Positions 13,105 to 29,794 of a stretch of 50,234 nt of DNA are shown here, piece after piece (position 1 is the stretch's first letter; the number at the start of each line of letters is the position of its first letter). Below the pieces are notes generated by a model. It had not been told where the DNA came from and ran no database searches. It saw only the letters and a list, made by a program, of their open reading frames with translations. Made by a program: the position numbers and the translations under genes. This DNA is from an uncultured Chthoniobacterales bacterium (GTDB taxonomy: Bacteria > Verrucomicrobiota > Verrucomicrobiia > Chthoniobacterales > SZAS-18), in NCBI GenBank assembly GCA_964246175.1, contig CAXTQD010000003.1:1-50234 (forward strand). The letters run 5' to 3'.

Positions 13105-13129
13105 TAGTTGTTAAGAAAAAGGGTGGAAC
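13105..13129 (+). repeat. Left-end motif, putative transposase-binding site
   Basis: TAGTTGTTAAGAAAAAGGGTGGAAC; related copies cluster at 29543-29794. Confidence 0.75.
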
Positions 13130-13221
13130 ACGTTCAAAGTCCTTTGAAACACCTTTCGCGTACCGATCCGCGCACTTGTTTTGCACGCGGCAGCTTTACG
13201 AGCACTTTTCTGTGCGGACCG

Positions 13222-14805
13222 TCAATCCGAGGCAGCGACCTCGGTGAACTGGAGCCGTCCGTTGGCTCCAAATCCGGCCGTCTGTGCGGTCTGCGAGTTC
13301 ATGCCAGCCCGTCGCGCTAGATGTGCGGGAGCATCATCTGAAAAGTCTTGTTCAGCCGTTTGCACAGGCTTTGCAGTTTCTTTGCAAGACTGCTTTCCGT
13401 CGGCCTGTTTTGCGGCTTTGCCGGTGCCGGCGCGCTCGGGTGCAACTTGATCCAACGCGCGCTTGATGTCAGCGCGTGTAGCCACCGTGCGGCCTTCCTG
13501 ATGGGCAAAGAAAGAGGCGATGTCTACCACGCGCTTGATGCCGAAGAGGTATTCCTGTGCGTCCAGCGCGTAAGCCGCGAGTCGCACCACCGAAGGCGCA
13601 TCCGCTGCGGGGGCGATTTTGCGCGCCACCGCCATGACTTCCTCTTCCGTCAGTGTCGCCGGAAGCAACTCTTTCCATGTGATCCGACCGCGCAGTTGCT
13701 TGGCGTTCCACTGGAGGTGCTTCTCGTAGTGCGTGCACTGCCGGTCGAACTGCGGTGTCGAGACAAAGACCACCGGTACTCCTTTGTCCAACAGCGAGCG
13801 TCGGACCCAATCTAGCCGCTTAGGCGGGCACTTGGGGCGGGCGCTGATAGGTATCAGCCAGTGGGCTTCGTCGAACACCACCGTCAGGTGCCCTGCCTGG
13901 AGCATGTCCTCGATCTTGCCCCGTAACTCCAACGCTTTGAGCTGGCCAGAGGAAGCTGTACCGATGGACCGTGCCAGACTGCGAAAAAAGGATGTTTCGT
14001 CTCCGCCAGACTCTAAGTCGATGAACACCGCCTCACCGGGGTGCATGTCACAGTAATTGCGCGCGGCAGTGCTTTTACCCGTTCTCTGGTCGCCTTCTAC
14101 AACAGCTAGGCCCTTTGCGAACGTGGCAATCCCAATTGCCTTGTGTACCATGCGGGAGACTTGCGTGTCTGCGATGGCATCACGCGCGGCGTCGATCTGC
14201 CGTTGCCGGAATAGCATCAGCGTGCCCACAAAATCTTCGATCCACCACGTCGAGTCGAGGCAGTTCTCCCGCCGACCAGGCAGTTGGTAGTAGAAGGAGG
14301 GTTTCTCTAGGTTAGTACGAGGATCCAAGCAAAGCGCGCGCAAGGCGCTTTCAAGCCCACCCCCTGCCGCTGCTTTGCGGCAAATTGCGAAGAGGTCATC
14401 GGCTTGGGTTGGGAAATCATCATCTCTCGGGCAAAAGAAGCCATCGAGAAGTGCGGCATCGTCTTGAGCCGATCGATTAGGCGTATCGGGGAAATCGTGC
14501 CGTAGCGCCTCCCGCTCATCATCGTCGAGTTTCTGCCCCGGCTTGAGTGCCAATCCCCTCATGCCCGGCGTGCGAAACTTCTCTGGAAACGCAGCGAGAA
14601 TTTCGTCTGCCACCCGACGCAAACCGCCATCGCGGTGGGAAAGTTGCTGGAGAAAATAGCACAGCGCACGATGCTCCGAACGCATCGCCACTTTGCATCT
14701 GCGGGCGACAAGGTTGCCTAGGAGGCCGACCTCATGCGCGCTGCTGGAGGCATAAGCCTCTTGGCTGACAGCGGAGCCATCCTGCCGATACCGGGTGCTA
14801 CTCAT
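13222..14805 (-). CDS. MuB/TnsC-like AAA+ ATPase (transposition protein B)
   Basis: Walker A GDQRTGKS, Walker B VVFDEAH; overlaps the end of the transposase gene; ~200 aa N-terminal extension. Confidence 0.85.
   Translation of the reverse strand: MSSTRYRQDGSAVSQEAYASSSAHEVGLLGNLVARRCKVAMRSEHRALCYFLQQLSHRDGGLRRVADEILAAFPEKFRTPGMRGLALKPGQKLDDDEREALRHDFPDTPNRSAQDDAALLDGFFCPRDDDFPTQADDLFAICRKAAAGGGLESALRALCLDPRTNLEKPSFYYQLPGRRENCLDSTWWIEDFVGTLMLFRQRQIDAARDAIADTQVSRMVHKAIGIATFAKGLAVVEGDQRTGKSTAARNYCDMHPGEAVFIDLESGGDETSFFRSLARSIGTASSGQLKALELRGKIEDMLQAGHLTVVFDEAHWLIPISARPKCPPKRLDWVRRSLLDKGVPVVFVSTPQFDRQCTHYEKHLQWNAKQLRGRITWKELLPATLTEEEVMAVARKIAPAADAPSVVRLAAYALDAQEYLFGIKRVVDIASFFAHQEGRTVATRADIKRALDQVAPERAGTGKAAKQADGKQSCKETAKPVQTAEQDFSDDAPAHLARRAGMNSQTAQTAGFGANGRLQFTEVAASD
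13359..13386 (+). repeat. TTTGCA x3 with 11-bp period
   Basis: TTTGCA at 13359, 13370 and 13381, inside the low-complexity tail of the ATPase gene. Confidence 0.7.
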
Positions 14806-17239
14806 CGTTCAAGTTTTCCTGTGCCTCCATTTCGTCAGCCTGTTTGAGCAGTTGCAACGAACGCAGGCGTGCATCGGCATCGCGGCCAGGCGTGGAGGCG
14901 CGGATGCCGAGTTCGCGCTCCAGTTCGGACGTGCGCCGCGCGACTTGTTGCCGCTCGTCGTCTTTGACCCGGACTTTGGCGCGTCCCTCCTTGATGGCAT
15001 CGCCGAGCAGCACGGTATTCAAATCTGCATCGATCCGACGGAACATGGACTGTTTGAGCAATGGCCCGATGGCACGGTAAGCAGTCCTCTGGTAGCTGCT
15101 GTGCGCGGCGGATTGAGAAAGCGCCGCACTGAGTTGACCGGGCGCTGGATAAAAGGAGGCGACTTGAGGCAGCAGCGGCACTTCAATTGGGTTCCGGTCG
15201 TGTAGATCCGTAATCGTCACAGAGGCCGGCGGCGCGCCGTCGCCTTCTTGTACGTCGTACCGCACGATAACTTCCTTGCCCCTCAAGCGGCTGGTTTCTG
15301 CGTTGCAATACGCGGGCCGCTGACTGTGCCACGAGATTGTCACACCTCGCTGCCCGACTTTCGCTTGGCAGCGATGGTTTAGCAGCAGGTAGCGTGTCGG
15401 TCCTTCAAGGCGGGTGAGCGGATCGCGGTAGTCGAACCATTTCTCCCACGCCTGCAATGGTGAGAGCTTTTGCAGTCGCCGGCCATCTTGGCGTTCGTTG
15501 TTGTAGCGATTACAGTAGCCGATGAGCTTTTCGATCCACTGCTCTTTGCTGTAGAGAAAGCTGCCGTATTCAATCTTACCGGCTGCCGCGTCACGAAGCT
15601 TTTTCTGGATGCGCTCGAATTTTTCCGTCATCTCCGCTCGGCCGACATACCCGACCTCGCCGTCCATCATATCTTCGAGCTTGCCGATGGTATTCTCGAT
15701 AGTCTTAGAGCGGGGCAGATGGGCGTGACGGAACTCCACAAAGTCGCGCAGTCCCTTTTCGGTGTCTTCCAAAGTAATCTCGTTCCTCGCGGTGCCCTTG
15801 AGCAGCCGCGCGCTGGACCAAAGCCCGCGCTCAAAGTACAGAGCTTTTCGAGGCAGGCCGTAGCGGTCGTGCGCGGTGATGAACGCGTTGCGAATGATGC
15901 GCGCGTTGTAGTTACGTTCCGAGTGCAGAGCGAAGCTCAGAATGAGTGAGGTCCGCACGTCACAAAAAAGGATGAACTGGCCGCGCATCGCCATCGGTCC
16001 ATCCGGTGTGTTCTCCCAGTAATAGGAGTTCAAAGTTACGTCATCGGCCGTCCACACGTCTCCCGGACTGATGTCCGAGTAATCACGCTCAAGGTAGGCT
16101 CCTCGGAGCTTTGCCTGGCGCGGTCCGTGGTGAATGTCCCAAAGGTTGGCGACTTCGTCGCGCAACAGGCTTCGGAGGCTTTCGGGAAGATAACTTTTCG
16201 ACGCGAACCACCTATTGAGCCGAAGCGTCGTTTCGACGCTCAATTCTTTGCCATGCATCGCGTTGCGGACGCCAAGGGAAAGACGCCCTCGCGCTTCGAC
16301 CGCTCTAGCCTTGATGATCAACAGGTCCGATTCTGGCCACGCTGCCCGCGCATCGTCGCGTGGTCCCCTACGTCGATCCACAAGCGCGGACTTTTCGCGG
16401 CCGCCTGCTTTCCACCGCATGAGGTTGCGAGAAAAAGACATCTCAAGGGCGGTCGCGCTTTTCGCCAACTGCACGCCAGAATCTGCTAGCGTTCGGAATA
16501 TCTGGCGTCGTGCCTGCCGCTCATCGGCGCCGGAGGAAACCAGTACGTCTATCTCGGTCAACGCCACTTCCCAGAGATGAGCTTTTTCCTCCGCGGTTGG
16601 TGCGGTCGGGTTTTCGATTTGCAAAAGCGCCCTGCAAACCTCGTGCACGGTGCTTGAAAACCGGTTCACAGGTGCGGCGGTCAGCATGTTACGCTTGGCG
16701 AGCTTGGCGGGCAGGAAGATTTCTAGTGGATACTCGCCACGCCAGCCCGCGCGCTCAACCGTGCGGTTCTTAAGTCGATGCCAATGGGCTGATGACACTG
16801 CATGTCCAAACTCGGCCTTGTACTCTGCCAGCCCGCTCGCTTCGATCTCGGCTGCTGGGAGAGGGGGCATGATGGCGATGCGCTTCAAGGTCGGCGCGAG
16901 CGCGCGCTCGAGCTTCGCGGCTTCGACGATGCAATGCTCGGCCAATTCGGCCAACGTCACCGGTTTGCCGTCGATGGTCGGACGCCACGGTGCACCGGGA
17001 TCGGCGAGCAGGTGGGCGGTGTCCCGGTAACATCCCTGGCGCGCCTTAGCGGCTAGTTCGTCGCGCATGGATGTCGGAAGTTGCTCCAACGTCCACGCGA
17101 GAGCCTGCTGCCCTCGCGCGAGGGCACGTCCGCCGGGTGCAACGTCCACCAACCGCTTCTTGACGCCGCGCGGGCTGATCCTAAGCGCGGCGGCGATCTG
17201 CGCGGCAGTAAACAGGATGGACGTGCCGATGGCGCTCAT
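14798..17239 (-). CDS. MuA-like DDE transposase
   Basis: N-terminal Mu-type HTH (FTAAQIAAAL...WTLEQLPTSMR); core motifs WTADDVT, LYFERG and SKTIENTIG; YNNERQ..LSPLQAW; C-terminal beta-barrel-like segment. Confidence 0.85.
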   Translation of the reverse strand: MSAIGTSILFTAAQIAAALRISPRGVKKRLVDVAPGGRALARGQQALAWTLEQLPTSMRDELAAKARQGCYRDTAHLLADPGAPWRPTIDGKPVTLAELAEHCIVEAAKLERALAPTLKRIAIMPPLPAAEIEASGLAEYKAEFGHAVSSAHWHRLKNRTVERAGWRGEYPLEIFLPAKLAKRNMLTAAPVNRFSSTVHEVCRALLQIENPTAPTAEEKAHLWEVALTEIDVLVSSGADERQARRQIFRTLADSGVQLAKSATALEMSFSRNLMRWKAGGREKSALVDRRRGPRDDARAAWPESDLLIIKARAVEARGRLSLGVRNAMHGKELSVETTLRLNRWFASKSYLPESLRSLLRDEVANLWDIHHGPRQAKLRGAYLERDYSDISPGDVWTADDVTLNSYYWENTPDGPMAMRGQFILFCDVRTSLILSFALHSERNYNARIIRNAFITAHDRYGLPRKALYFERGLWSSARLLKGTARNEITLEDTEKGLRDFVEFRHAHLPRSKTIENTIGKLEDMMDGEVGYVGRAEMTEKFERIQKKLRDAAAGKIEYGSFLYSKEQWIEKLIGYCNRYNNERQDGRRLQKLSPLQAWEKWFDYRDPLTRLEGPTRYLLLNHRCQAKVGQRGVTISWHSQRPAYCNAETSRLRGKEVIVRYDVQEGDGAPPASVTITDLHDRNPIEVPLLPQVASFYPAPGQLSAALSQSAAHSSYQRTAYRAIGPLLKQSMFRRIDADLNTVLLGDAIKEGRAKVRVKDDERQQVARRTSELERELGIRASTPGRDADARLRSLQLLKQADEMEAQENLNDE

Positions 17240-17661
17240 GTCGCAGGTTCAGCCATCGGGAACACGGCCAGCTTGATTTCGCCGTCGTGCTTGCTCACAG
17301 CCACCACTTCCACTCCTCCCGCCTGCAAAGTGGTCGCATTTGGTACTTCGGTAGCGTCTTCCTTGGCGGCGAGAGGATGAATTGCCAAGCGGACTTCGCG
17401 CGGGCGCAGGAAGTTGATTGTCACCGACACACCCGCCGCCAGCGGCTGAGGTTTCGGCCCAAGGATGGCTTCCATGTTGTTCCGGTAGAACGTGCCGACG
17501 GAAGTCGGTGAAATCGTGATGCCCAACTCGTCTCGCAAGAGCCGGTGCACTTCCGAGTAGGACTTGTTCTCACGCAGCCAACCCAACAGGGTTTCGCGTT
17601 GGTCTGGGGTGAGAGTCTGGAGCGGACCTTGATCCGAGCGGGGTTTGCGGTTGCGGCTCAT
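17236..17661 (-). CDS. Mu gp27/DUF3486-like HTH protein (putative small terminase subunit)
   Basis: RKPRSD..LQTLTPDQRETLLGWLRENKSYSEVHRLLRDELGITISPTSVGTFY matches the DUF3486 N-terminal pattern; ATGA overlap with the transposase start. Confidence 0.6.
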   Translation of the reverse strand: MSRNRKPRSDQGPLQTLTPDQRETLLGWLRENKSYSEVHRLLRDELGITISPTSVGTFYRNNMEAILGPKPQPLAAGVSVTINFLRPREVRLAIHPLAAKEDATEVPNATTLQAGGVEVVAVSKHDGEIKLAVFPMAEPAT

Positions 17662-17666
17662 GGTGT

Positions 17667-20600
17667 CTAAGGGATGCCGAGTTCGACGCGGTTACCGGTG
17701 ATGGCATCGAGGATGACCTTGGTGCCCTTCTTGCTCCGCATGTGCCGCATCATGGCGTCTTGGTCGAAAAAGACGTAGGTATGGTGATGGTGATCACCAC
17801 CGCCAGTTCCGCCCTCGCCACGGCGGCTGCGCGGTCCACTGGCACGTCCGGTCGGGCTGTAGCCGCCAGCAGAGGCCATCGCTCCGCGTGCGTCCGAGGA
17901 GAGGCGCGGCACGCGCACGTTCATCCTTGCCTGTGAGAGCGCGCGGAGGTTCTCCACGCCCCAGCTGAGCACGGACGACTTCGGAAAAACGTACTCTCCC
18001 CGGTGAACCACACCCGCTACTTCGCTCTCGTGACCGTCGCCCGTGTAGCCGCCCGAGCGGTAGCTGCCGGCGGCGGCGCTGGCAGCAGTCGCACCGGCTA
18101 GAGCCGCGCCGTACGCAAGAGAACCGATGCCAACCGCCGCGCCTTCGGTGGCAATCGCCATGTTGATGGCCGCTGGTGCCGAGGCAACCGCGAGCTGCGA
18201 GGCGCTTTGGATGGCCCCTTGGTTCGCCTGCTTGTTTGTCAGCGCATCAATGGCCGCCATGATGAGCCGGCCCGCGACGTACTCGACAACGATCTTCACG
18301 AGCATGGCGATGATGCTCTGACCCACTTCGGCGAAGGCTTGGCCGAGCGTCTTCGTGCGGGTGATCAGCCCGGTGATGGCGTTGCTGATGCCGTTGGTGA
18401 TGGTCGTGGTGATCTCCCGCGCCGCGTTGCCCGCCACCTTGGCGAGGTCCGTGAACCCGTTGGCGAGCTGCGTGAGCTGCACACGGATATTGCCGAGGGG
18501 CGTCAGCTTCGCCGCCTCCAGGTTCATCTCCTTCTGCTTGAGGATCACCTGCGCGACGGCCGCTTTGATCTTCTCCAGGTCGGCCACCGTCTTCGGCGTC
18601 TGAGGCTGCGCCGTCAGTTTGGTTTGCTCGGCTTCCAGTTGCTTCTGGAGTGCGGCCAACTGGACGAGGAAAGTCTGGATCGTCTGGATGTTTTTCTGTG
18701 CCGCCTCGGCCGGACTCTTCTCGCCGAGCGCGAGTTCCACGTCAGTCAGCTTGACGGTGGACTGGTACTGCGATTCGAGCTTGGAAAGCTGCTCCAGGAG
18801 TGCCCGGCGCGCTTCCAGGTCGTTGTTGTCCTTGCCGCCCGTGTCGGGCTTCTTGTCGGGCAACACCTTCCCCGGCTTCGTCGGGTTGATCTTGGTGTCG
18901 TCGTTCGCGCTGCCGGGCTGTGCTTTGATGACGCCAAGGCCGAGCTGGAGAGCCGCCGCGCCCGCCGCGATCACCGCGTTGCGCATGTTGGCGATGGCTC
19001 CATCCACCATGCCCTGCGCGGTCTTGACGATGTAGTCGGTGCCCTTGAAGAGTCCCGCCGCCGCCGTGTCCACCGCGCTGTTGACGGATGAAGCGATACC
19101 GCCGGCACCGGGGATTGCGCTCAAGACACCCATGATCGTCTTGACGAAACTCACCGCCTGGTTGACCGCATCTTGGAACGTCGCGGCGAGTGCCTGCACG
19201 ATGGCTACGCCAAGGCCATCCATCGCCGCCTGCACGGCGTAGAACGCCGCCTTGACGAGGTTGCTGATGAGCGAACATGCCGCCGAGACGATGGGCGCGG
19301 CGGAAGTCAGGAGGTCCCGCAAGTGCGTTGCCGCGCTGGCGAAGTCGCCGTTGATGATGGCAGCGACAACCTGCAAGCCATCCCCGGCAATCTTGAGGAA
19401 TGCGCCGATGACGTACCCGGCAGCCGTAAACTCCGGCTTGAGTGCCGTGAGCACGTCCTTGACTGCCTGGAGGAAGGGAGTCAGCCCGTTGACGATGGGG
19501 CGGCCGAAGGTTTCCATCATCTGCTGCCACGCGGTGCGGATGCCTTGCACCACGCCCGCGAAGGTCCGGGCGAACGCCGCCGCGGCACCGCCGTACTGGT
19601 CGAGCGACTTCTCCAAAGCCGCCCAGATTTCAGAGCCGCTCTTCCCGGCGGCGGCCATGTTCTTCAGTTCGTTGGCCGTCGAACCGGAGATCAACCCCGC
19701 GCGCTGCAACTGCTGCGTTGCGCGCTGGATGGGCTGGCCGTTTTGGATGGCCTCGTACGCCCGGCCGAAGCTGGTGGCAACGGAGGTCAGCGACTGGCCG
19801 GTACGCGCCGATCCTTCGATGACCAGCTCCAGACTCTTGCCCGTGCCGAGGGCGCCCTGGGAAAGCAGCGTCAACTCCTGGCTGGCCGCGCGCACCTGCT
19901 CGGTGGGCAAATTGAACTTCTCGGCCGTGGCGTCGAGTTCCTCCAGCCGCTGCTGTGCGGCTTGTGTGCTGCCCAGCAAGGCGAGGAAGCCCGTCTCGGC
20001 CGTCTGCTGCGTGGCGGCTTCGGAGATGGCCTCCTTGACCAGCCCAGCCGCCTTCGCGATGCCGGCGAGAGCGATGGTTGCCGCCGCGCCGACAACCAAC
20101 AGAGGTCCGAGCGTGGACACGAACCCGGCCACACCGCCGCCGGCCGCCGCGACCTTCGGGCCGATGGTTTCCACCGCCTGTCCGAAAATCTGGAGACCCA
20201 CGCCCGCGCGCAGCAGCGAAGGCTCCACCAAGCCCAAGGTGGTCAGGAGCGTGCCAAACTCCTGCGCCTTGCCGCCGAACGCATTGTAGCGCGCCGCGTC
20301 GGCTGCCTGTTTCTCGGCAGCGGCGAGCCGTTCGGAGGCGGCGGCGGCCGCCTGCTTGAGTTGAGTGTAGGCACGCTCGGCTGCGGCGGCCTGTTGCGTG
20401 TAGTCGGCGACGTTGCGGCGAACGTTGGCAATGAACTCCGCGTTCGCTCCCTCTTCGGCCTCTATCTCTGCCAGGTATTGCTGCGCCTGCGCGAGGGCCG
20501 ACAGCGACAGCGAAAGGCCGTTGGCGGCGCTTTCTTCCTCGGCGCGCAGGATGGCCGCTTCCCTGGCGAGGCTGAGTTCGGGCACCCGCGCTTCCGTCGA

Positions 20601-20942
20601 GGCGGTGCGCGCCACCGTCTCTTCGGCGAGGCTGCCGCTCAGCGAAGCGCGGGAACTCGCCTCGCTGGCGAGCAGCTCCGCCAGCGGTCCCGCCGCCGCC
20701 GCTTCCGCTTCCTGGGCGGCAACGGCTCCCTGCGCGGCGGTGGTGACCGCCGCAATGGTCTCGGCGTTGCGCCCGGCGGTCTCACTGATGGTGTTGAGGC
20801 CGTCAGTGACACCCTTCGCCTCTTGGGCAAGTTCGGTGGCTCCCTTCGCGGTCTGGGCCACTGCCTCCGTCAGACCCTTGATCTGCGCGAGGGCGTCACC
20901 CACTGACACCACGAACTTCAACTCAAACGGTCGGTCAGCCAT
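17667..20942 (-). CDS. Phage tail tape measure protein
   Basis: 1091 aa, Ala/Gly-rich and helical; tape-measure domain (FLALLGSTQAAQQRLEEL); hydrophobic central segments; lambdoid C-terminal motif GGYTGDG...AGVVHRGEYVF...GVENL; lies right after the chaperone genes. Confidence 0.9.
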   Translation of the reverse strand: MADRPFELKFVVSVGDALAQIKGLTEAVAQTAKGATELAQEAKGVTDGLNTISETAGRNAETIAAVTTAAQGAVAAQEAEAAAAGPLAELLASEASSRASLSGSLAEETVARTASTEARVPELSLAREAAILRAEEESAANGLSLSLSALAQAQQYLAEIEAEEGANAEFIANVRRNVADYTQQAAAAERAYTQLKQAAAAASERLAAAEKQAADAARYNAFGGKAQEFGTLLTTLGLVEPSLLRAGVGLQIFGQAVETIGPKVAAAGGGVAGFVSTLGPLLVVGAAATIALAGIAKAAGLVKEAISEAATQQTAETGFLALLGSTQAAQQRLEELDATAEKFNLPTEQVRAASQELTLLSQGALGTGKSLELVIEGSARTGQSLTSVATSFGRAYEAIQNGQPIQRATQQLQRAGLISGSTANELKNMAAAGKSGSEIWAALEKSLDQYGGAAAAFARTFAGVVQGIRTAWQQMMETFGRPIVNGLTPFLQAVKDVLTALKPEFTAAGYVIGAFLKIAGDGLQVVAAIINGDFASAATHLRDLLTSAAPIVSAACSLISNLVKAAFYAVQAAMDGLGVAIVQALAATFQDAVNQAVSFVKTIMGVLSAIPGAGGIASSVNSAVDTAAAGLFKGTDYIVKTAQGMVDGAIANMRNAVIAAGAAALQLGLGVIKAQPGSANDDTKINPTKPGKVLPDKKPDTGGKDNNDLEARRALLEQLSKLESQYQSTVKLTDVELALGEKSPAEAAQKNIQTIQTFLVQLAALQKQLEAEQTKLTAQPQTPKTVADLEKIKAAVAQVILKQKEMNLEAAKLTPLGNIRVQLTQLANGFTDLAKVAGNAAREITTTITNGISNAITGLITRTKTLGQAFAEVGQSIIAMLVKIVVEYVAGRLIMAAIDALTNKQANQGAIQSASQLAVASAPAAINMAIATEGAAVGIGSLAYGAALAGATAASAAAGSYRSGGYTGDGHESEVAGVVHRGEYVFPKSSVLSWGVENLRALSQARMNVRVPRLSSDARGAMASAGGYSPTGRASGPRSRRGEGGTGGGDHHHHTYVFFDQDAMMRHMRSKKGTKVILDAITGNRVELGIP

Positions 20943-20946
20943 AGTG

Positions 20947-21129
20947 CTAGAAGCGGATGCCCGCGCGCAGGAAGTCGCCGCGCGGACCGTTCTCGATGCT
21001 GTCCACCACTCGCTCCATGATCAGTCTCAGCTGCCTTACGGTGCGGGTGTCGAGGTAGGCGGCTGAGTATCCTCCGATGCCGATGAGGAAGTCGTAGGCG
21101 TCGGCGAGGTCAGTGCCGGAGCCTTCCCC
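20947..21129 (-). CDS. Tail assembly chaperone, frameshifted C-terminal (gpT-like) segment
   Basis: Open -1 frame relative to 21036-21485 (GEGSGTDLADAYDFLIGIGGYSAAYLDTRTVRQLRLIMER...), ending 4 bp before the tape measure ATG. Confidence 0.65.
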   Translation of the reverse strand, partial: GEGSGTDLADAYDFLIGIGGYSAAYLDTRTVRQLRLIMERVVDSIENGPRGDFLRAGIRF

Positions 21130-21485
21130 ACCCCGAACTGACCCAAGATGTCCGGCGGGAGGTTGAGGGCGACGGTCGGCCGCAGCAGAGCCGGAAAGTC
21201 GCTGCCCGGCAACTGCATCAGCCACTCACTGGGCTTTCCGGTGCAGGCCGTGACGAGGTTTTCGCCCACGGTAAACAGCAGCGTGGCAAAGAGCGCGACC
21301 TGGTCGACCTGGATTGACCCGTTGGGACTGACCTTGGCAAATCGATCCACGTGCGGGGCCAAGCTGGCGAGGAAACGCCGCTGCTCCTGCCAGTTGAGTT
21401 CTTTGATGGTGACCGTTTCCTTGCTCCGGGGGAGCGTGATGGTCACGTCCGGGGACATGATTTCTGCTGCGTTGTCTGAGTTCAT
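21036..21485 (-). CDS. Tail assembly chaperone (gpG-like)
   Basis: MNSDNAAEIM...ETVTIKELNW...LVTACTGKPSEWLMQLP...TVALN; 149 aa; A/C-rich leader; upstream of the tape measure gene. Confidence 0.7.
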   Translation of the reverse strand: MNSDNAAEIMSPDVTITLPRSKETVTIKELNWQEQRRFLASLAPHVDRFAKVSPNGSIQVDQVALFATLLFTVGENLVTACTGKPSEWLMQLPGSDFPALLRPTVALNLPPDILGQFGVGKAPALTSPTPTTSSSASEDTQPPTSTPAP

Positions 21486-21687: not shown

Positions 21688-22115
21688 TCATCGTGGGCTG
21701 ACGGCGATGATCTGCTTGCCGATGGGGTCGTGGCGCATCTCGGCCTCGGCTTGGGGGGCGGGGCGGCGGCGGCCGTCCACCCGGTCGGCCAAGCGGGCGG
21801 TGGACGCGGCGCGCCGGCCGGGCGGCGAAGAAAGGGCGCCGCGCCCACCGGCACCGCCACGGGGGCCTGCGCCGACGGCGGGCGGCCAGCGTCGGCGTCG
21901 GCCATCCCGGCGAAGATGCGCGCGCCGAGCCGATCCTCCCGCATCGTGCGCAGGGCGGCGTCCAGCGTGCGGCCACCGCCGCGCCGCATCAGCTCGTCCA
22001 GCCGCCAGTTGTAGGCCGTGCGCCGGCTACCAGCCGTCGAAAGGTCGAGCGTGACCACGACCGTTGGCTCTGCGGGTACCTGTCCAGCGGGCCGTGAGTT
22101 CTTCGAAGCATCCAC
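21688..22115 (-). pseudogene. Two-repeat small phage protein interrupted by a frameshift (real or sequencing error)
   Basis: Repeat 1: LSTAGSRRTAYNWRLDELM...MREDRLGARIFAGM. Repeat 2, in the -1 frame: LSSPPGRRAASTARLADRV...MRHDPIGKQIIAVS, stop at 21688. Confidence 0.45.
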
Positions 22116-22146: not shown

Positions 22147-22662
22147 TCAGTGGGTGAGCGAGTAGGGCAGTGTATGAATGATCGACACCGGGTCGCCCGC
22201 GTTGACGACGTTCAGCCGCGCGCGTCCGAAGACGATGTAGGTGCCGGCGGCGGCGGGCAGGCCGATGATCTGGCCGGGGTTGGTCGGATCGGCGACGAGC
22301 AGGGTGTTGGCGGCGATGGGGGCGCTCGCCACGCCGGGCAGCGTGCCGGGATAGATGCCGAAGAGCGCCACGGCTTTCTTGATGGTGTTGGCTTCCCCGG
22401 CGTCCACCTGATCGTTGAGGATGATGCCGCGCGGCACGTCGGCCTGCGCGCTGGTGGCGGCGAAGTGCCGGTCATCGGTGGAGAACTTGACCAGCGCGTT
22501 GCGGAAGGGGATGACGACGCCTATGTCCGGCCAGACGTTGTCGGTGCCGCGATGGTTGACTTCCATCGGGACCATCACGGCGTTGGTGGCGACGGCCCGG
22601 CCACGCAGGGTGTCGAGGATCGCCGCAAAGAGCAGCGCGGAGTGGAAGCGGATTTTTTGCAT
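22147..22662 (-). CDS. Capsid cement/head decoration protein (DUF2190-like)
   Basis: Small beta-rich protein: LVKF...DVPRGI...VALFG...VASAPIAANTLLV...GTYIVFGRA...AGDPVSI. Confidence 0.7.
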   Translation of the reverse strand: MQKIRFHSALLFAAILDTLRGRAVATNAVMVPMEVNHRGTDNVWPDIGVVIPFRNALVKFSTDDRHFAATSAQADVPRGIILNDQVDAGEANTIKKAVALFGIYPGTLPGVASAPIAANTLLVADPTNPGQIIGLPAAAGTYIVFGRARLNVVNAGDPVSIIHTLPYSLTH

Positions 22663-22716: not shown

Positions 22717-23007
22717 TCAGGAAGCGGCTTCCCCGGCGCCCGACTGCGCCTCTTCGGGCACAGCGGCGGGAGCAGCACGAAGGGGATGGCGGTTCACCCC
22801 GTCCGGCGTGCCTTCCGGCCCGCTCTGAAGTTGATCGTGCTGCACCTGCACCTGCTCGGCCTGGATCGCCATGAGTTCGGCCGTGACTGCGGAGCTGCCG
22901 GGGCCGGCGGCGATGAGGGCCTGTTTGCGTGCGGCCACACGGTCGGGGTCGATGCCTTTAGGCAGTTCGGTAGCGAGCAGGTCGGGGTGTCGGACGGGAA
23001 CGTTCAT
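22717..23007 (-). CDS. Hypothetical phage protein (paralog of 23150-23464)
   Basis: LPKGIDPDRVAARKQALI...AELMAIQAEQVQVQHD. Confidence 0.65.
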   Translation of the reverse strand: MNVPVRHPDLLATELPKGIDPDRVAARKQALIAAGPGSSAVTAELMAIQAEQVQVQHDQLQSGPEGTPDGVNRHPLRAAPAAVPEEAQSGAGEAAS

Positions 23008-23149: not shown

Positions 23150-23464
23150 CTATTGGGCGTCCGGTTGCTGTCCGGTGATGGCAACGGCTTCGGCCAGCGT
23201 CATCCCATGACCGCTTCTAGTTTCACGGTTGTGGCGTCCAGCCGAGATGCCGGCAACACGCGCCAAGTGCGCGGATTGCTGCACTTCGGCGTCGAGGGCA
23301 ACCCGTTCAGCCTGCATCTGACCATCCGCAGTTCTCCCGTCGAAGGCTTGGCAGTCCAGAAGCATCTTCTTCCGTTCGGCAACCTTCTGTGGGTCAATGC
23401 CTGCCGGTACGGCGAGGGAGATACCAAGTTGAGCGGGAGTCAAAGGAGCGTTTGTTTCTTGCAT
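23150..23464 (-). CDS. Hypothetical phage protein (paralog of 22717-23007)
   Basis: VPAGIDPQKVAERKKMLL...AERVALDAEVQQSAHL. Confidence 0.65.
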   Translation of the reverse strand: MQETNAPLTPAQLGISLAVPAGIDPQKVAERKKMLLDCQAFDGRTADGQMQAERVALDAEVQQSAHLARVAGISAGRHNRETRSGHGMTLAEAVAITGQQPDAQ

Positions 23465-23509: not shown

Positions 23510-24502
23510 TTAGGCCGCCGCAACGTGGGGCGACGTGTAGGTGAACACTTCACGGCCTTCATGGATATTCTTCAGCGTGGCCTTGAGTGCCGTTGCTTTG
23601 GTGAGCACGTCCTCGGCGGCCGGCGGGGTGGGGGATGGACGCTTGTTGAAGGTGTCGTAAGCGAAGTTTCGGCCAGTGTTGCAAAAGGCCGTCAGCTCCC
23701 GCACGGCGGGCAGCGCCAGGAACTCCTCGTCGGTCAGGCCGCTGCGTGAGGCTTCGACGCCAAAGGGAGCCATGGCGACGATGAGGGCGGCCGTGGCACG
23801 CTGACGCAACTGCGCTGCCAATGGTCCCCAGCACAGATTGTGGATCAACGCGGCGCTGCCCCGCACGATGTCCGCCGCGGACCGCAGTTGGGCGGCAAAG
23901 GCAGCCTCTTCGGCGGCAATTTTCTCGGCGATGACCGCGCGTTGCGCACCAACGGCCTGCAAACTTGCCACCGTCTTTTCGTCGTGCTTACCAGAGGCAT
24001 TCAACCGCTCCGCTTTCGCCTCCACATCCGCCGCTTCCTGCCGCAGGTCAGCGAGGCGGGTTGTCCACGGCGGTAATACTTCAGAGATGGAATCGACCTG
24101 CTTAAGAGCAGTTTCGACTTGGTTGCGTTGTTGATCGTTCAAGGAAGGCAGTCGCATAGATGACAGGCGGTAAGCATTGAGGTTGGTGTAGGCGGCGGCG
24201 GCGAGAGCGGGTTCCTGGAAGCACTTGAGGAAAGCGGCGTGGCAGCTAGCTAGGTGTGCACGAGTGTCGTCCTTCACTCTGCTGAGTTCGCCGCTCCGCC
24301 AGTGGCAGTACCGCCTGCCGATCTCACGGGTTGCAAGCACGTCAACGCTCATGCCGATGAGGCTGGCAAAATCCTGGCGGGAGATTTTTAGCGCCAAGCG
24401 TAAAGCCAGCATTTTCTCCTGAAGCTCTTCTGCTTGCTCAGGCGTGCTGTCTTCGTTCCGAAAGCGCTCGGGAACACGCTTGCTGCGTAGTGAGGTTGCC
24501 AC
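23510..24502 (-). CDS. Cro-like XRE HTH protein fused to a coiled-coil domain (possibly two genes; second ATG at 24157)
   Basis: LRLALKISRQDFASLIGMSVDVLATREIGR HTH; heptad-rich C-terminal half; divergent from the repressor. Confidence 0.65.
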   Translation of the reverse strand: MATSLRSKRVPERFRNEDSTPEQAEELQEKMLALRLALKISRQDFASLIGMSVDVLATREIGRRYCHWRSGELSRVKDDTRAHLASCHAAFLKCFQEPALAAAAYTNLNAYRLSSMRLPSLNDQQRNQVETALKQVDSISEVLPPWTTRLADLRQEAADVEAKAERLNASGKHDEKTVASLQAVGAQRAVIAEKIAAEEAAFAAQLRSAADIVRGSAALIHNLCWGPLAAQLRQRATAALIVAMAPFGVEASRSGLTDEEFLALPAVRELTAFCNTGRNFAYDTFNKRPSPTPPAAEDVLTKATALKATLKNIHEGREVFTYTSPHVAAA

Positions 24503-24608: not shown

Positions 24609-25307
24609 ATGCCGAGAAGCCCGCTACCCGCCCGCGAGGCGGAAATTTGCCAGCGGCTGCGTATATGGCGTGAGCAACGAGGCATCTCCCGTGTTCAGTT
24701 TGCCGAGAAGGTTGGACTGCGTGCGGACTCCTATTCCGCGTACGAATATGCTCGTGCCCCTGTGCGCTACGAGTTGGCCCAGAGAATCTTCGCTTGGTTC
24801 AACATCAACGCGAAGTGGCTGGCAACCGGTGTCGGACCGCTTAACCTTGCCACTCCTACCCCGCTGGCCCGCGAACTCGGAATCAGCCCGCGTGAGGCGT
24901 TCAGTTCTGTCTACGACCGGTTGCTTGTGCCCGACGTGGAAAAGCGGAATGAAGCCGCCATTGAAAGATTGAGGCTCCGGCATCTGTTGCCCTCATCAAC
25001 CGTTGATCCTCCAACAAGCTCGCATGAGCGCGTTTTACTTGAGGAAGCTCTTCAATCCTTCCTACGAGAGTGTTTCTCGGAGTTCCCAGCCGATGATCTC
25101 GCTGCATTCGTCGGTGGGATTATGAACTTGGCCGCTGAAATCGGTTACGCATCCATGTCGCTGAACGAGGAAGAAGCTAGGAGGCGTCGCGCCGAGATGG
25201 ATGCCGCTTGTGCCTTCATTGCACGCCGTCGGCAGGAACTCGGAATGGAGTACCCCCCCTTACCCGGCAGTCTCGAAACGGGATATCCCCCGTTGCCAGG
25301 TAGTTGA
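24609..25307 (+). CDS. XRE-family HTH repressor (cI-like)
   Basis: RLRIWREQRGISRVQFAEKVGL...YSAYE...INAKWLATGVG; no S24 peptidase domain seen. Confidence 0.85.
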   Translation: MPRSPLPAREAEICQRLRIWREQRGISRVQFAEKVGLRADSYSAYEYARAPVRYELAQRIFAWFNINAKWLATGVGPLNLATPTPLARELGISPREAFSSVYDRLLVPDVEKRNEAAIERLRLRHLLPSSTVDPPTSSHERVLLEEALQSFLRECFSEFPADDLAAFVGGIMNLAAEIGYASMSLNEEEARRRRAEMDAACAFIARRRQELGMEYPPLPGSLETGYPPLPGS

Positions 25308-25446: not shown

Positions 25447-25671
25447 TTACTTTTGGCGACGGAGTGTGGCGTCGTCATCTTCGGTCAGCAATGCCATAGG
25501 GATCGCAAGTTTGCCGCCACGTCGGCCAGCCTGCACAAGTGCTGCCATCGCTTGCTCAAAGAAATCTGTGGCATTGGCGAACTCCATCCGCCTCTCCAAC
25601 TCGGCATCGAAACTCGCTTTAAGGGATGCCTTAGTGCGGAAGGTCACACCCGCCTGCTTGTTCTGTGCCAT
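25447..25671 (-). CDS. Ribbon-helix-helix-like small regulator
   Basis: GVTFRTKASLKASFDAEL...NATDFFEQAMAALV (beta-alpha-alpha pattern). Confidence 0.55.
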   Translation of the reverse strand: MAQNKQAGVTFRTKASLKASFDAELERRMEFANATDFFEQAMAALVQAGRRGGKLAIPMALLTEDDDATLRRQK

Positions 25672-25804
25672 AGGGAATTTTCTGTTGTCGGTTCAAACTG
25701 ATTGCAAATCAGACATACAGATGCTTGGCTTATTTTGCATCGTGCCCCCGGCTTCTGCCGATTAGGGCACCTCAAACTCAAACAGTAACCCATACCAAAA
25801 ATGT

Positions 25805-25838
25805 GGGGCCGTTCGGTCTGGTACACCGAAACGGCCCC
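25805..25838. other. GC-rich hairpin in the leader of 25852
   Basis: GGGGCCGTTCGGT-ctggtac-ACCGAAACGGCCCC; no U-tract. Confidence 0.6.
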
Positions 25839-25851
25839 GCGCTAAACACCG

Positions 25852-26412
25852 ATGAAATTGCATCCCAACGGTGACCGGACCTTATTGCCCGGCACCAAAC
25901 CCGTCAAACACAAAACCGGAAAATCTTTCCGCGCATCGAAGCAGTCGGCACCGGCTCAGCCGCCGCTGCCAAACGAGGCACACGCGCCGCGTCCACCCAT
26001 CCTCCCGCCGCCATCGCTCCCGGCGGCCGTGGTCACGCCGCAAACCCTGGCCCCGCTCACGCTCGGCGAGGTCGCTTGGCAAAACCGCGCTTGGCCGCGC
26101 ATGTTCACCTTGCCCGGTATCAAACGCTACCTCGACTACGATGCTGAGACGCTCTGTGCGCACTTGGCCTCGGCCTTCCTCGACTTCCAAGCCGAGTTGC
26201 ACGAGTTGGTAGCCACCGCCGCGCAGACGCGCCCAGACCGCGCCGCGGCACTGGCTGAGGCTGTCACCATCTTGGAACAGTGCGCCAGCATGGAAGGCTT
26301 CGCTACCGAGCTGGACCACACCCCGAGCAACGGGGAGTCGCCGCTCCTGCGCTTGGCCGCGCTGGCCAAGGTGCAAGCGTTGAACAAAGGGAAGGGAGGG
26401 ACGCAACAGTGA
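25852..26412 (+). CDS. Hypothetical protein
   Basis: 186-aa ORF, Pro-rich N-terminus and helical C-terminus; GTGA overlap with the next gene. Confidence 0.6.
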   Translation: MKLHPNGDRTLLPGTKPVKHKTGKSFRASKQSAPAQPPLPNEAHAPRPPILPPPSLPAAVVTPQTLAPLTLGEVAWQNRAWPRMFTLPGIKRYLDYDAETLCAHLASAFLDFQAELHELVATAAQTRPDRAAALAEAVTILEQCASMEGFATELDHTPSNGESPLLRLAALAKVQALNKGKGGTQQ

Positions 26413-26879
26413 AAAACCGCGTCCCAAAAGCCAAGGCGTACCACCGGGACATCGTCGTTCCCAAGTGGCACAAGAAGCTAGCCTGTGTGGTCCGTGTCCG
26501 CTTGACAGCGGAAGAGGCATCCGAAGTCCAAGCACTCGCCGACCAGCTCGGCCTGACGCTGGATGCTCTGATCGACTTCTACGTGGACCGCAAATTACCG
26601 ATGCGGCCGCGGCTTAAAGAGCCCACCATGAAGCTGACGAGGATCGTGTTTCAGCCCGCGCTTTCACCCGAAACGATGGCTAGGCTCCAACGAGCCGCCG
26701 CGTTCTACGAAGAGTCGCTTGAACGCTTCATCGCCGGCTCTATCGCAGGTGCCATCCACGGGGCGGAAGACTCGATGTTGATCGATCCTCGCACCGGAGA
26801 GTTGATCGGCGAGGATTTCCTCGCCGCCCTGCTGCTGCGCGATGTGGATTACTACCGCGGCGGAAAGGAGGTCAAATGA
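26409..26879 (+). CDS. Hypothetical protein with tandem RHH-like segments
   Basis: GTG start after GGAGG; VRVRLTAEEASEVQALADQLGLTLDALI and LSPETMARLQRAAAFYEESLERFI. Confidence 0.6.
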   Translation: MKNRVPKAKAYHRDIVVPKWHKKLACVVRVRLTAEEASEVQALADQLGLTLDALIDFYVDRKLPMRPRLKEPTMKLTRIVFQPALSPETMARLQRAAAFYEESLERFIAGSIAGAIHGAEDSMLIDPRTGELIGEDFLAALLLRDVDYYRGGKEVK

Positions 26880-27127
26880 GCCACGGCAAACATCTCGCCT
26901 GCTGCGTTGGAGACCACTCCGGCCGCATCGTCCGCGATGTAGCCCCGGACCGCACTCCCGTCACCTTCTTCCATGAAGACGGCCGCGTCTGGAACGTGGT
27001 GGACTTGCCCAACCGCATCCTCGACGCCTACCGCAAACTGGCGCGGCGGGAGCACACCGGGATTAACTACCTGCTCTCTGCCGCCTTTGTGGAGGCGGCA
27101 CAAAAGCTGTTGGACGAAACCGAGTAG
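26876..27127 (+). CDS. Hypothetical protein with RHH-like C-terminus
   Basis: AGGAGG RBS and ATGA overlap; VDLPNRILDAYRKLARREHTGINYLL. Confidence 0.6.
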   Translation: MSHGKHLACCVGDHSGRIVRDVAPDRTPVTFFHEDGRVWNVVDLPNRILDAYRKLARREHTGINYLLSAAFVEAAQKLLDETE

Positions 27128-27144
27128 GTCACATCAGACGCGCC

Positions 27145-27183
27145 ACGCCGGGCCGGGGAGTAATTCCTTGCCCGGCGTTTTTC
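27145..27183 (+). terminator. Rho-independent terminator
   Basis: ACGCCGGGC...GCCCGGCGT stem followed by a T-tract, right after the 25852-27127 operon. Confidence 0.8.
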
Positions 27184-27331
27184 GTTGTCTGTTTCAAGTC
27201 AATCTTTCACAGGACGATACTGCTGTGACAGCACTAGGCTGATGTCGCCGCCAAAGCAGCATAGGAATAAAATAAGGAATTTTTGCTAATTGCTTTGACA
27301 ACTCTTCGGCCGCGCGCATGCTCGCTGCACG

Positions 27332-27919
27332 ATGAACGAGTTCGATGCTCAACAGAGGTTCGCTCCCTACGTTGCATGGATCCGGGAGTGCTGGTGGAAG
27401 GGCTGGGACGAATACCACCAGAAATTGCAAGATCCGATGGACGACGCCCGCGCACGGTCCGTGATGATTCAGAACCGGGCGGTCATCCATGCAATCAAGA
27501 CCTGCGGAAAGTTCGGCGGGATTCATCCTTTCACCTTCGATTCCCGCCGTCTGCTGTTGATCCCGGACTGCGCCATCCTTCAATTCAAAAAACTGACGGA
27601 CGAACTGAAGCTGTCGAACAATGTGAATAAGACGGTTCATCGGTTCGACAGCCAGATGCCGTTACCGGGCCTGGTGGACCTTCCTCGGATTACGACAGGT
27701 TATTGCCCAAACGGGGATCACACGTCGATGTCGATTTTTCTCGTCCATACGAAGAGTCATTACGAAAACAATTGGACGATCAACATCAGCGCCACCCCCG
27801 TCGCAACCCACGTTGACCTCTTTGAAGCTGACGATGAACAATTCATCCAAGAAACCCGCCGAGTTCGGCCTAAACGAGCCGCTGGCACTGAAGGCGGTGA
27901 GTCTGCCGCTCAGGGGTGA
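27332..27919 (+). CDS. Hypothetical protein, putative toxin/effector partner of the HTH-ImmA/IrrE protein
   Basis: QFKKL...SN...FDSQMPLPG...ITTGY pattern; overlaps the peptidase gene; TTGACA at 27295 in an AT-rich upstream region. Confidence 0.65.
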   Translation: MNEFDAQQRFAPYVAWIRECWWKGWDEYHQKLQDPMDDARARSVMIQNRAVIHAIKTCGKFGGIHPFTFDSRRLLLIPDCAILQFKKLTDELKLSNNVNKTVHRFDSQMPLPGLVDLPRITTGYCPNGDHTSMSIFLVHTKSHYENNWTINISATPVATHVDLFEADDEQFIQETRRVRPKRAAGTEGGESAAQG

Positions 27920-28946
27920 GATGGTAACGCTTGCCCGTGAGGAGCGCGGGCAAACGCAGGAACAACTTGCACTACTCCTGGGAGTCAAACAGGGCACGTT
28001 GTGCAAACTGGAAAATGGCATTCTTGCCCCTTCGGATGATCTGAGAATCAAATTGGCCGAGGTGCTGGACCGGCCGGCAGAGTTCTTCGCTTACGCCGGA
28101 CCTATTGAGGCACCCACGTTCGTACAATACCGGCGCAAGACCAACATTGTGCCAGCGGTGATGAAGTCCTTCTGGGCGCGCATCACTTTGGCAACGCTCG
28201 AAGTGCGTAAACTGTTGGTCAGCGCAGAACTAGTCACTCAGAAACTGCCCTGCATTGATCCCGACGAATGCGCTGAGGGCGTGATCGAGGTTGCCCGCAG
28301 GATCCGCCGGATGTGGAAGCTGCCACCTGGACCTATCCGCAACTTGATGCGGCTGGTCGAGAACAGCGGCTGCCTAGTAGTCAGGTTAGATTTTGGTACC
28401 CGAAAGATCGACGGGTGCAGCGGGTTCGTGGACGAGCTGCCGGTGATTTTTATCAACACTGGCCTCTCTGCGGCCCGCCAGCGTTTGACGATTGCCCACG
28501 AACTCGGGCATCTCATCATGCACCGTTATCCCAGTGAGGAAGCCGAGGACGAAGCGTTTCTGTTTGCCTCAGAACTCCTCGCCCCAGGCAACGAACTTGA
28601 GCCGACCCTCCGGCCGCTCTCGATGGACAAACTTGCCCGCCTGAAACTGTACTGGGGCATCTCAATGCAGGCGTTAATCAAACGCGCCGAGTCGCTGGGA
28701 GCAATCCAACCCTCAACTATGCGGTACTACTGGGCAAAGATCACCCAGAGCGGCTACCGTGAGTCTGAACCGTACGACGAAGAGCAGGTCTCTGAGAAGC
28801 CTTCGCTTCTCAACGAAATTATCGACACTTACATCAAGGAGATGCACTACTCGGAAGAGGAATTAGCGCGCTTGCTCATGATGAACACGCCTGCTCTGAT
28901 GAGTAAGTACCGCGGGTTTGCCAACCATCTGCGGATCGTGAGATGA
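27897..28946 (+). CDS. XRE HTH plus ImmA/IrrE (M78) Zn metallopeptidase
   Basis: LAREERGQTQEQLALLLGVKQGTLCKLENG HTH; RQRLTIAHELGHLIMH and EDEAFLFASELLAP motifs. Confidence 0.92.
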   Translation: MSLPLRGEMVTLAREERGQTQEQLALLLGVKQGTLCKLENGILAPSDDLRIKLAEVLDRPAEFFAYAGPIEAPTFVQYRRKTNIVPAVMKSFWARITLATLEVRKLLVSAELVTQKLPCIDPDECAEGVIEVARRIRRMWKLPPGPIRNLMRLVENSGCLVVRLDFGTRKIDGCSGFVDELPVIFINTGLSAARQRLTIAHELGHLIMHRYPSEEAEDEAFLFASELLAPGNELEPTLRPLSMDKLARLKLYWGISMQALIKRAESLGAIQPSTMRYYWAKITQSGYRESEPYDEEQVSEKPSLLNEIIDTYIKEMHYSEEELARLLMMNTPALMSKYRGFANHLRIVR

Positions 28947-29009
28947 CTTCTTTGTTCGCCCCAGGCGTGTGACTGCTCGCTCGTAAACCGCAATGCTGGT
29001 TGACTCGCC

Positions 29010-29444
29010 ATGATCACCTCTGACGAGAAGCCCCGCTTCCTCAACATTCAGGACACCGCTGCACGACTTGGCAAAAGTGGTCAAGTCGTTGCGATGTGGA
29101 TTGAGGAAGGACGCCTCCCCGTACTGAACATCGCACCAGAACCCAGCGTGACCCGTGCGGCGTACCGCATCCCTGATGGTGTCGCGGTGGATTCCGGTCC
29201 GTGGTCTCCTGCTGCCTTCAGTCTGCCTTGGCCTCCCCCGCCTGGCACTTCTCAACCTTTACTTCCCATAAAAGCCGTCGCCGAGATGTTTAGCTGCTCT
29301 CTCGAAAACGTCGCTCATCTGATCCGAGCGGGAAGGTTAGAAGCCTTCGATCTATCGAGTAGGGGTGGCAAGGTACGACGCGCTCTTTATCGAATGAGCG
29401 TGCCCGCCGTGAACAGGTTTGTTGTTGCTAACCTCACTCCCTGA
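29010..29444 (+). CDS. Tandem excisionase-like (HTH_17) DNA-binding protein
   Basis: Two repeats: LNIQDTAARLGKSGQVVAMWIEEGRL...AYRIP and LLPIKAVAEMFSCSLENVAHLIRAGRL...LYRMS. Confidence 0.75.
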   Translation: MITSDEKPRFLNIQDTAARLGKSGQVVAMWIEEGRLPVLNIAPEPSVTRAAYRIPDGVAVDSGPWSPAAFSLPWPPPPGTSQPLLPIKAVAEMFSCSLENVAHLIRAGRLEAFDLSSRGGKVRRALYRMSVPAVNRFVVANLTP

Positions 29445-29451
29445 CAAGCGG

Positions 29452-29479
29452 TTTGCACGCGCTTTGCAGAGCCTTTGAA
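29452..29479 (+). repeat. TTTGCA/TTTGAA x3 with 11-bp period
   Basis: TTTGCA at 29452 and 29463, TTTGAA at 29474. Confidence 0.7.
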
Positions 29480-29542
29480 AAGCTCGACAAAGCTCCGCCA
29501 ATAGCCCAAGTCGGCGGATTCGTGGTAAAAACCAGGTTCCAG

Positions 29543-29794
29543 GTTCCAACCTTTCTTCCCGGTAGAAATGTTAAGAAAAGGCTGGAACTACGGCAGTGCA
29601 GAACGTCGAATAACGTTGCGCTAGAGCTACTTGCGAAGGAATTTGCTTCTGGCGGAAAGGTTCCACCCTTTCATAACAGATGCCGAAAGTTCTTAACAAA
29701 TGCAGGCGGCGTAGCCGCTATGATTTGCTCTGTAAGTGCCTCGTTCCCAGCATCAGCTAGGCTTTCCACCCTTAGGTCAGCCTTTTAACAACTA
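29543..29794. repeat. Right-end cluster of putative transposase-binding motifs
   Basis: Copies of TGTTAAGAAAAGGGTGGAAC at 29543-29557 (-, partial), 29569-29588 (+), 29660-29678 (-), 29690-29699 (-, half) and 29764-29794 (-, split). Confidence 0.75.

Follow-up and report, generated by a model that had tools for sequence, protein, structure and literature searches.

The described systems closest to the element considered here are phage Mu with its Mu-like relatives and the laboratory mini-Mu, the Tn7-like transposons that home to tRNA genes, and the integrase-based phage satellites, among them the phage-inducible chromosomal islands (PICIs), the PLEs of Vibrio cholerae and the mycobacterial EPIPs. 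The element occupies positions 13090-29809 (16,720 bp) of a stretch of 50,234 nucleotides, hereafter the window (contig CAXTQD010000003.1 of assembly GCA_964246175.1, from an uncultured Chthoniobacterales bacterium of the Verrucomicrobiota), and combines intact MuA-like and MuB-like genes, already recognised in an earlier sequence-only reading, with a partial set of virion genes and a position close behind an intact tRNA gene. Its identity as a transposon and its homing to tRNA genes are well supported, and its description as a discrete, non-autonomous, transposase-based element is supported; that such a tRNA-homing MuA/MuB-type transposon is also a satellite, spread by a Mu-like siphophage, is the explanation we favour, with a confidence only slightly better than even.

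Mu duplicates 5 bp of its target and inserts at nearly random sites; PICIs, the capsid-forming ones included, are controlled by a divergent repressor switch, and SaPI is known for CpmB; PLEs, similar in size to the present element, possess an integrase, an excision function and a replicon of their own. With Mu and the Mu-like phages the element shares the MuA-type DDE transposase encoded beside a MuB-type ATPase, ends starting with TG and followed by inner repeats, a CI-like switch, and genes of the gp27, protease I, decoration, chaperone and tape-measure types; it differs from them in the size of its family (6-17 kb), in that no large terminase, tube, baseplate or lysis gene was found, in its fixed position behind tRNAs, in the 4-bp target duplication, in an extra N-terminal MuB domain and in a transposase distantly related to phage MuA, and the complete morphogenesis and lysis content of a 35-45 kb phage is missing from the 16.7 kb enclosed by its two ends. 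With PICIs it has in common the repressor switch, the portal, protease and capsid genes of some family members and a lone scaffold C-terminus resembling CpmB in principle; it differs from them in having no integrase, primase-helicase or large terminase match and no att-site duplication of the tRNA 3' end.

The Tn7-like tRNA-homing elements (the CRISPR-associated transposons CAST I-B2 and I-D; PMC10293859) resemble the element in their TGT-type ends, fixed distance behind an intact tRNA and preferred orientation, and possibly in their TnsB/TnsC-type protein pair; Tn7-type homing to tRNA genes requires TnsD and places the insertion 30-33 nt away (PMC10293859), whereas the element, in which no TniQ/TnsD, TnsA or Cas gene was found, lies about 14 bp behind the CCA end, uses many tRNA species, encodes an ATPase closer to MuB and carries phage virion cargo. 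PLEs put their own tape measure into the tails of the helper and encode a putative chaperone; like the element, they combine an own tape measure, a putative tail chaperone and a capsid scaffold, the rest of the virion being missing (10.1101/2025.01.29.635557), whereas the element has a transposase, no replicon was found in it and its packaging is putative. EPIPs, of about 11 kb, similarly carry a small terminase, a scaffold and a tape measure and neither tail tube nor lysis genes (PMC12822802); they differ in their serine integrase, in being circular in particles and in being experimentally shown satellites. The mention, in the sequence-only reading, of tape measures in mycobacterial satellites is correct as regards EPIPs, with the correction that Vibrio PLEs, too, were already known to combine tape measure and chaperone.

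The element belongs neither to the Mu-like phages nor to the Tn7-like elements nor to the integrase-based satellites; its satellite features are a small genome, a partial virion gene set and virion genes kept by selection. The satellite classes described (P4, PICI, PLE, EPIP and others) are known to employ recombinases, plasmids or free particles, and a literature search, with most subscription papers outside its reach, found no transposase-based satellite, no TniQ-less tRNA-homing Mu-type element and no account of this family. If true, a transposase-based satellite would widen the definition of satellites, and integrase-centred searches miss it. The targeting matters whatever the verdict on the satellite: a MuA/MuB pair able to target any tRNA gene, at constant spacing and with neither TniQ nor guide RNA, would represent a new mode of target selection and, since one copy carries 31 kb, a candidate compact tool for safe-harbour integration. 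The family also offers a view onto phage, satellite and possible gene transfer agent (GTA) biology in Verrucomicrobia.

Element ends and the tRNA target

The features on which the transposon assignment depends are the following.

13086..13089: target-site duplication, left copy (GAAC)
13090..13135, plus strand: MuB-side terminus (TGTA...), first inner repeat at 13109; the same end motif follows MuB in relatives
13222..14805, minus strand: MuB-like AAA+ ATPase, 527 aa, with intact Walker A/B and arginine finger and an extra N-terminal helical domain of ~180 aa
14798..17239, minus strand: MuA-like DDE-type transposase, 813 aa, intact (phrog_310, E 1e-21)
29543..29809, minus strand: tRNA-side terminus (TACA... 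on the minus strand), with several inner repeats of 18-20 bp
29810..29813: target-site duplication, right copy (GAAC)
29826..29900, minus strand: host tRNA-Arg(CCG), intact; 37 bp from the T-loop TTC to the element end

The ends were fixed by alignment across relatives and read TGTA at 13090 and, on the minus strand, TACA at 29809; the 4-bp GAAC duplication abuts both. The termini proposed in the sequence-only reading, 13109 and 29790, were rejected, as no target duplication exists at these positions: the TG/CA found there is the start of the inner repeats, and the true ends lie 19 bp further out on each side. The MuB end has one copy of these 18-20-bp repeats, and the opposite, tRNA-side end has several, which are likely transposase-binding sites; the GC content is 0.61 in the element and 0.64 in the flanks. 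The right element end lies 16 bp from the 3' end of tRNA-Arg(CCG), a neighbour absent from the earlier reading and the key to the whole family. When the 42 scored tRNAs of the source genome were compared, the end motif scored best behind tRNA-Arg(CCG) (9.0, the runner-up 5.8). The same site in 13 loci of the genus is empty in two (G007 and G003), where the sequence reads directly into the flanking oxidoreductase gene, shows an element end at the same spacing in three (the source genome, G004 and G010) and holds other sequence in eight; no relative has there the full prophage that would have pointed to simple deletion, the occupants in G004 and G010 being small related elements.

Across the family, 35 positions behind each upstream tRNA were scanned with a motif model seeded from the MuB-side ends. 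Of the 28 loci with an upstream tRNA, 25 have the end motif at a distance of 34-40 bp from the T-loop TTC, the failures being L064, L068 and L074; in L068 and L074 the tRNA-side motif was not found, and in L064, as in L045, L065 and L080, the opposite element end stands at the tRNA (39, 37, 37 and 37 bp, in the order L064, L045, L065, L080). The spacing is exactly 37 bp, equal to 14 bp behind the CCA end, in 17/29 loci, and five of the ten metagenome loci examined add spacings of 37, 39, 37, 35 and 36; the targeted tRNAs comprise 19 anticodons and 10 amino acids. A target duplication is present in 20 of 28 bounded elements (4 bp in 19, 5 bp in one; G265, G294, L041, L043, L055, L062, L082 and L190 have none), where a 4-bp duplication is expected by chance in about 1 in 256 per locus; it lies outside the tRNA, whose 3' end is not duplicated as an att site. 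The opposite orientation, with the MuB end next to the tRNA at the same spacing, was observed in L045, L064, L065, L080, L202 and L203. In L043 (about 2025-2100) and L082 (about 70-116) an end lies behind the 3' part of a tRNA missed by ARAGORN; in L043 an integrase gene just upstream of the tRNA part suggests that an island later split this tRNA.

The predicted catalytic triad of the MuA-like protein (D399/E470/E515) is invariant among 36 aligned homologues; its second predicted residue is Glu, not Asp, in 36/36 (D-E-E type). A sequence search of the PDB with the MuA profile gave no meaningful match, and INPHARED a single weak one (25%). The predicted model of the MuB-like ATPase (pLDDT 82) has MuB as its best structural match (residues 210-466, Z 20.6), compared with Z 16.3 for TnsC, and a weak match to a V-K TnsC profile was also seen. 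N-terminal to this core the model contains a confident helical domain, whose profile matched 21/23 bounded elements and none of the MuB proteins of Mu-like phages (62 viral loci); an Atlas search with it returned no match above 0.78. No TniQ was matched among the window open reading frames (ORFs) or 98 leftover ORFs, and the 23 bounded elements share no third transposition family. We infer that the N-terminal domain of MuB is a candidate for selecting the tRNA site: apparently specific to the family, it would read the T-arm sequence common to all tRNA genes, measure the insertion point and replace TniQ.

Distribution and composition of the family

Homologues of the transposase number 67 in the protein database, and matches were obtained in 5/30 genomes of the host family and 14/401 of the host class; the alignment search returned 45 loci in genomes, whose titles almost all name Verrucomicrobiota or Kiritimatiellota, two viral loci and 19 metagenome loci, ten of the latter being those examined above, while viral contigs scanned with a single MuA protein gave no match. 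Duplicate loci (L044, L047, L069) were removed before counting, and the genes of relatives were called with a simple in-house caller, some of them being mis-stranded. The same architecture recurs at unrelated sites, a check proposed in the sequence-only reading: accessory genes and the repressor usually run leftward, followed by small regulators, variable cargo, MuA and MuB running rightward. The 23 two-ended elements measure 6.4-16.7 kb and have in common MuA (23/23), MuB (23/23) and a repressor helix-turn-helix (HTH) family (22/23), nothing else being general; the exact gene set is not conserved, as relatives hold other virion subsets that include capsid, portal and protease. A larger member, 31,019 bp in G100 (L019-L020, L161), lies behind tRNA-Arg(ACG) with a 4-bp duplication and carries nuclease/ATPase, protease-like and other cargo; among its called ORFs, read by eye and not scanned, no virion gene was recognised.

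Several side observations concern the periphery of the family. Degenerate copies of deeper-branching MuA/MuB, with a MuB of about 393 aa, are found on contig C117 of the source genome (about 9000-12500) and in L015 and L016 of G010, and no tRNA was found alongside them; the right ends of the short-MuB copies G049, L039, L061 and L079 were not found. RadC/JAB-domain genes are recurrent cargo next to the repressor (L032, L029, L063, L074).

Virion cargo was surveyed in 36 loci (182 proteins), picked for their upstream sequence, most short copies with MuA and MuB only being excluded. A virion match in the PHROG database was obtained in 26/36: tape measure in 15, HK97-type capsid in 10, other capsids in 3, Mu protease I in 6 and portal in 4; large terminase, tube, sheath, baseplate, lysis and integrase were without match in these loci and 98 further ORFs. 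In a FastTree phylogeny, which gave long-branch warnings, transposases that are sisters are linked to head or tail modules with no relation to each other, and copies without virion genes fall among the carriers. For the L063/L074 pair, the only one close enough (pairs saturated or distant, with dS above 1, were excluded), the ratio of nonsynonymous to synonymous substitution rates (dN/dS) is 0.16 for portal, 0.20 for protease, 0.23 for capsid, 0.27 for tape measure and 0.28 for MuA. The window tape measure differs from that of a close relative at 36 listed positions, 17 synonymous and 19 nonsynonymous (26% expected, P 0.004), these being the best-supported tape-measure rows of 66 sites and transition bias inflating the synonymous share. 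In one well-resolved pair and one partial comparison the virion genes are thus under purifying selection, not at the dN/dS near 1 by which the sequence-only reading would have been refuted.

Virion genes, possible helpers and rival explanations

The virion-related genes of the window element and its regulatory switch are as follows.

17236..17661, minus strand: 141-aa protein; N-terminal HTH like the DNA-binding end of Mu gp27 (small terminase), remainder unrelated
17667..20942, minus strand: tape-measure-like protein, 1091 aa (tape-measure PHROGs, best E 3e-9)
20947..21150, minus strand: -1-frame extension of the tail chaperone (gpT-like), open, without canonical slippery heptamer in the window copy
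21036..21485, minus strand: tail assembly chaperone (gpG-like), 149 aa (phrog_1442, E 1e-7)
21882..22115, minus strand: C-terminal scaffold piece only of a Mu-type protease I, ~78 aa; minimal scaffold or remnant
22147..22662, minus strand: 171-aa protein, head decoration-like; its homologue in Mu-type head operons lies between the protease and major capsid genes
22717..23007, minus strand: 96-aa gene, homologous (52% over 44 aa) to the stretch immediately ahead of the decoration domain in Mu-type head operons
23150..23464, minus strand: 104-aa gene; weak kinship to the same pre-decoration phage segment (E 3e-4)
23510..24502, minus strand: 330-aa protein in Cro-like position and divergent from the repressor; HTH at its N-terminus (E 0.014)
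24609..25307, plus strand: CI-like repressor, of the HTH family general among bounded elements

The sequence-only reading had located the MuA-like, MuB-like, tape-measure, chaperone, 171-aa and HTH genes correctly, and its statement that large terminase, portal, capsid, tube, baseplate, lysis, integrase and primase genes are not recognisable agrees with the absence of matches among the 18 window ORFs; NCBIfam gave no match for the core genes. Judged by sequence kinship, the virion cargo of the window copy derives from Mu-like siphophages. The 171-aa protein has a homologue on contig C478 of the source genome (E 6e-14), is 48-54% identical to its counterparts in clusters of congeners and 47% identical to that of a 42.7-kb Mu-like provirus, which carries it as a fusion with counterparts of the 96- and 104-aa genes; its AlphaFold model is poor (pLDDT 50), and the resemblance of its fold to decoration and DUF2190 proteins (E no better than 0.04) provides leads only. 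G018 has a full head-and-tail cluster whose chaperone shares 36% identity with that of the element, the -1-frame extension being conserved and both reading frames kept, and the C-terminal part of the tape measure is 29% identical over 397 columns to the tape measure of the same cluster; homology to Mu-type morphogenesis clusters thus upholds the decoration and chaperone calls. Of the TerS-like gene proposed earlier, what stands is an N-terminal HTH of ~60 aa shared with gp27, the small terminase of Mu (44% over 57 aa, E 1e-7, residues about 4-67 only; a lead at 0.87); there is no full-length similarity and the oligomerisation region is unmatched. The 42.7-kb provirus also has a matching gp27 end, and one homologue of the 141-aa gene matches a small-terminase PHROG (E 4e-4). 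The ~78-aa piece at 21882-22115, overlooked earlier, is the scaffold end of protease I.

In the explanation favoured here, the CI/Cro-like switch would open upon lytic growth of the helper, with expression of one operon from the 330-aa gene through MuB; the tape measure and chaperone would replace those of the helper, as in PLEs, the scaffold piece and decoration protein would act on its head, and the borrowed virion genes together with the gp27-type DNA-binding domain would get element DNA into helper particles. Packaging would start from the chromosomal copy and take in flanking host DNA, as it does in transposable phages (PMC12135933), neither excision nor replicon being needed; in the recipient, MuA and MuB would insert the element behind a tRNA. 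It is by analogy with PLEs that packaging, induction by the helper and a function for each of the virion genes are proposed. To the fuller claim, of a new phage-satellite class with a Mu-type transposon at its core, which through two-protein recognition of the T-arm by a new MuB domain would use any tRNA gene as a safe harbour, without integrase, excision or replicon, and would leave in helper or GTA-like particles remodelled with captured head and tail genes, we would attach a probability just short of even.

A number of observations weigh against a satellite. Ten of the 36 loci have no virion match, and virion-free members, the 31-kb element included, indicate that the transposon can persist without virion genes; the virion subset, moreover, is different in almost every copy, and the transition bias in the tape-measure comparison, already mentioned, points the same way. 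As to targeting, G247 has both ends and a duplication but lies next to no tRNA, and a tRNA could be located for neither G330 nor G199. No primase, helicase or Rep gene was matched among the window ORFs and no second copy of element DNA was found in the source genome, which leaves the element no evident means of outcompeting helper DNA; with this and with site-specific insertion behind tRNAs, the role of replicative transposition as the replicon, proposed in the sequence-only reading, is putative. The window copy may itself be crippled: its chaperone lacks a 21-bp in-frame stretch carrying the slippery heptamer, a rule familiar from lambda G/GT, that is present in a close relative (one contig in X1 and a matching loose end in X2, from one study), and its scaffold is a fragment followed by a frame change, a second scaffold repeat continuing in another frame up to about 21690. 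The Mu-type module of the source genome (gp27, terminase, portal, protease, decoration, capsid and neck genes on three small contigs, C377, C478 and C485) is accompanied by no transposase, tape measure or chaperone of its own in the assembly (525 contigs, 94% complete), and its decoration protein is only a distant homologue of the element's.

Such signs of decay, together with the Mu-type phage homologues of every virion gene in the window copy and the deletion of most of MuA/MuB from the G004 copy at the same site, would suit a Mu-like prophage remnant left by deletion, an explanation that we regard as very improbable here and that is largely refuted for the family. The gene order is not that of a phage (decoration before scaffold, the gp27-type gene after the tape measure, MuA/MuB on the late-gene strand) and only a remote relationship (profile E no better than 1e-19, long branches) links its transposase to those of Mu-like phages from these hosts, so that simple deletion does not explain the element; bounded elements also cluster at 6.4-16.7 kb, their virion genes, which are under selection, stem from phage types unrelated to one another, and sites are empty in congeners. 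A tRNA-homing transposon that carries virion genes as anti-phage decoys, poisoning assembly, and that moves by general transduction or plasmids would need no replication and would accommodate the mosaic cargo, often a lone short tape measure of varying position and strand, as well as the defence-type cargo alongside it (the RmrA-like gene in the window, ABC-3C components in G105), and interference with tail assembly is a known defence (PMC11364771); we nevertheless consider it unlikely, as in several copies the portal, protease and capsid genes form coherent sets that evolve under purifying selection, virion genes and transposase form one operon under a CI/Cro-like switch, and the chaperone retains both reading frames, like a working assembly pair.

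A last alternative makes the element the satellite of a domesticated, GTA-like Mu-type cluster of the host lineage, which it would supply with tail-length and head parts. A Mu-type terminase is present in 12/13 congeners and the source genome (71-92% identity, about one locus each), and no MuA/MuB was seen in the five clusters read (four 60-kb stretches and one of 20 kb), from which it follows that the local module may be cryptic or GTA-like; the closest decoration homologues and scaffold ends sit in these clusters, and four genus clusters show no chaperone or tape measure homologous to those of the element or of G018. To this alternative we give rather little credence: the clusters may be cryptic prophages and their GTA activity is putative, true Mu-like phages of 35-43 kb carry the same modules, and the HK97-type genes of family members from other orders have no relation to the clusters. 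These clusters deserve mention in their own right, being 15-24 kb Mu-type morphogenesis clusters with a repressor, no transposase or replication gene found and about one per genome (C377, C478 and C485; L151-L152 in G010, L154-L156 in G006, L157-L159 in G004, L164 in G009, L148-L150 in G018), and are a candidate new gene transfer agent or domesticated prophage.

Accessory genes and related islands

The remaining features of the element lie between the repressor and the tRNA-side terminus.

25447..27127: small accessory ORFs, of 74 aa on the minus strand and of 186, 156 and 83 aa on the plus strand; no firm family match
27332..27919, plus strand: 195-aa ORF, no match
27813..28946, plus strand: XRE-HTH with ImmA/IrrE peptidase, RmrA-like (RosmerTA antitoxin family), cargo (PADLOC E 1e-54)
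29010..29444, plus strand: twin excisionase/MerR-type HTH protein, of a family present in 12/23 bounded elements

The 195-aa ORF is possibly the toxin partner of the adjacent RmrA-like gene, and the two (27332-28946) may form a RosmerTA-type defence or addiction module. A promoter scan of the repressor switch region found nothing, no site-specific integrase was matched among the window ORFs, and assembly of the sequencing runs gave no contig spanning the whole element. The source genome contains, in addition, two integrase-type PICI-like islands (C13 1566-10473 and C104 3211-10948), each ending in a tape-measure-like gene; their other genes, named as read from sequence, are integrase, excisionase/AlpA, primase-helicase and ERCC4-like. 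The tape measures of these islands are related to those of the transposase elements in G009, G004 and G105, and in this lineage tape measures are exchanged between elements of the integrase kind and those of the transposase kind.

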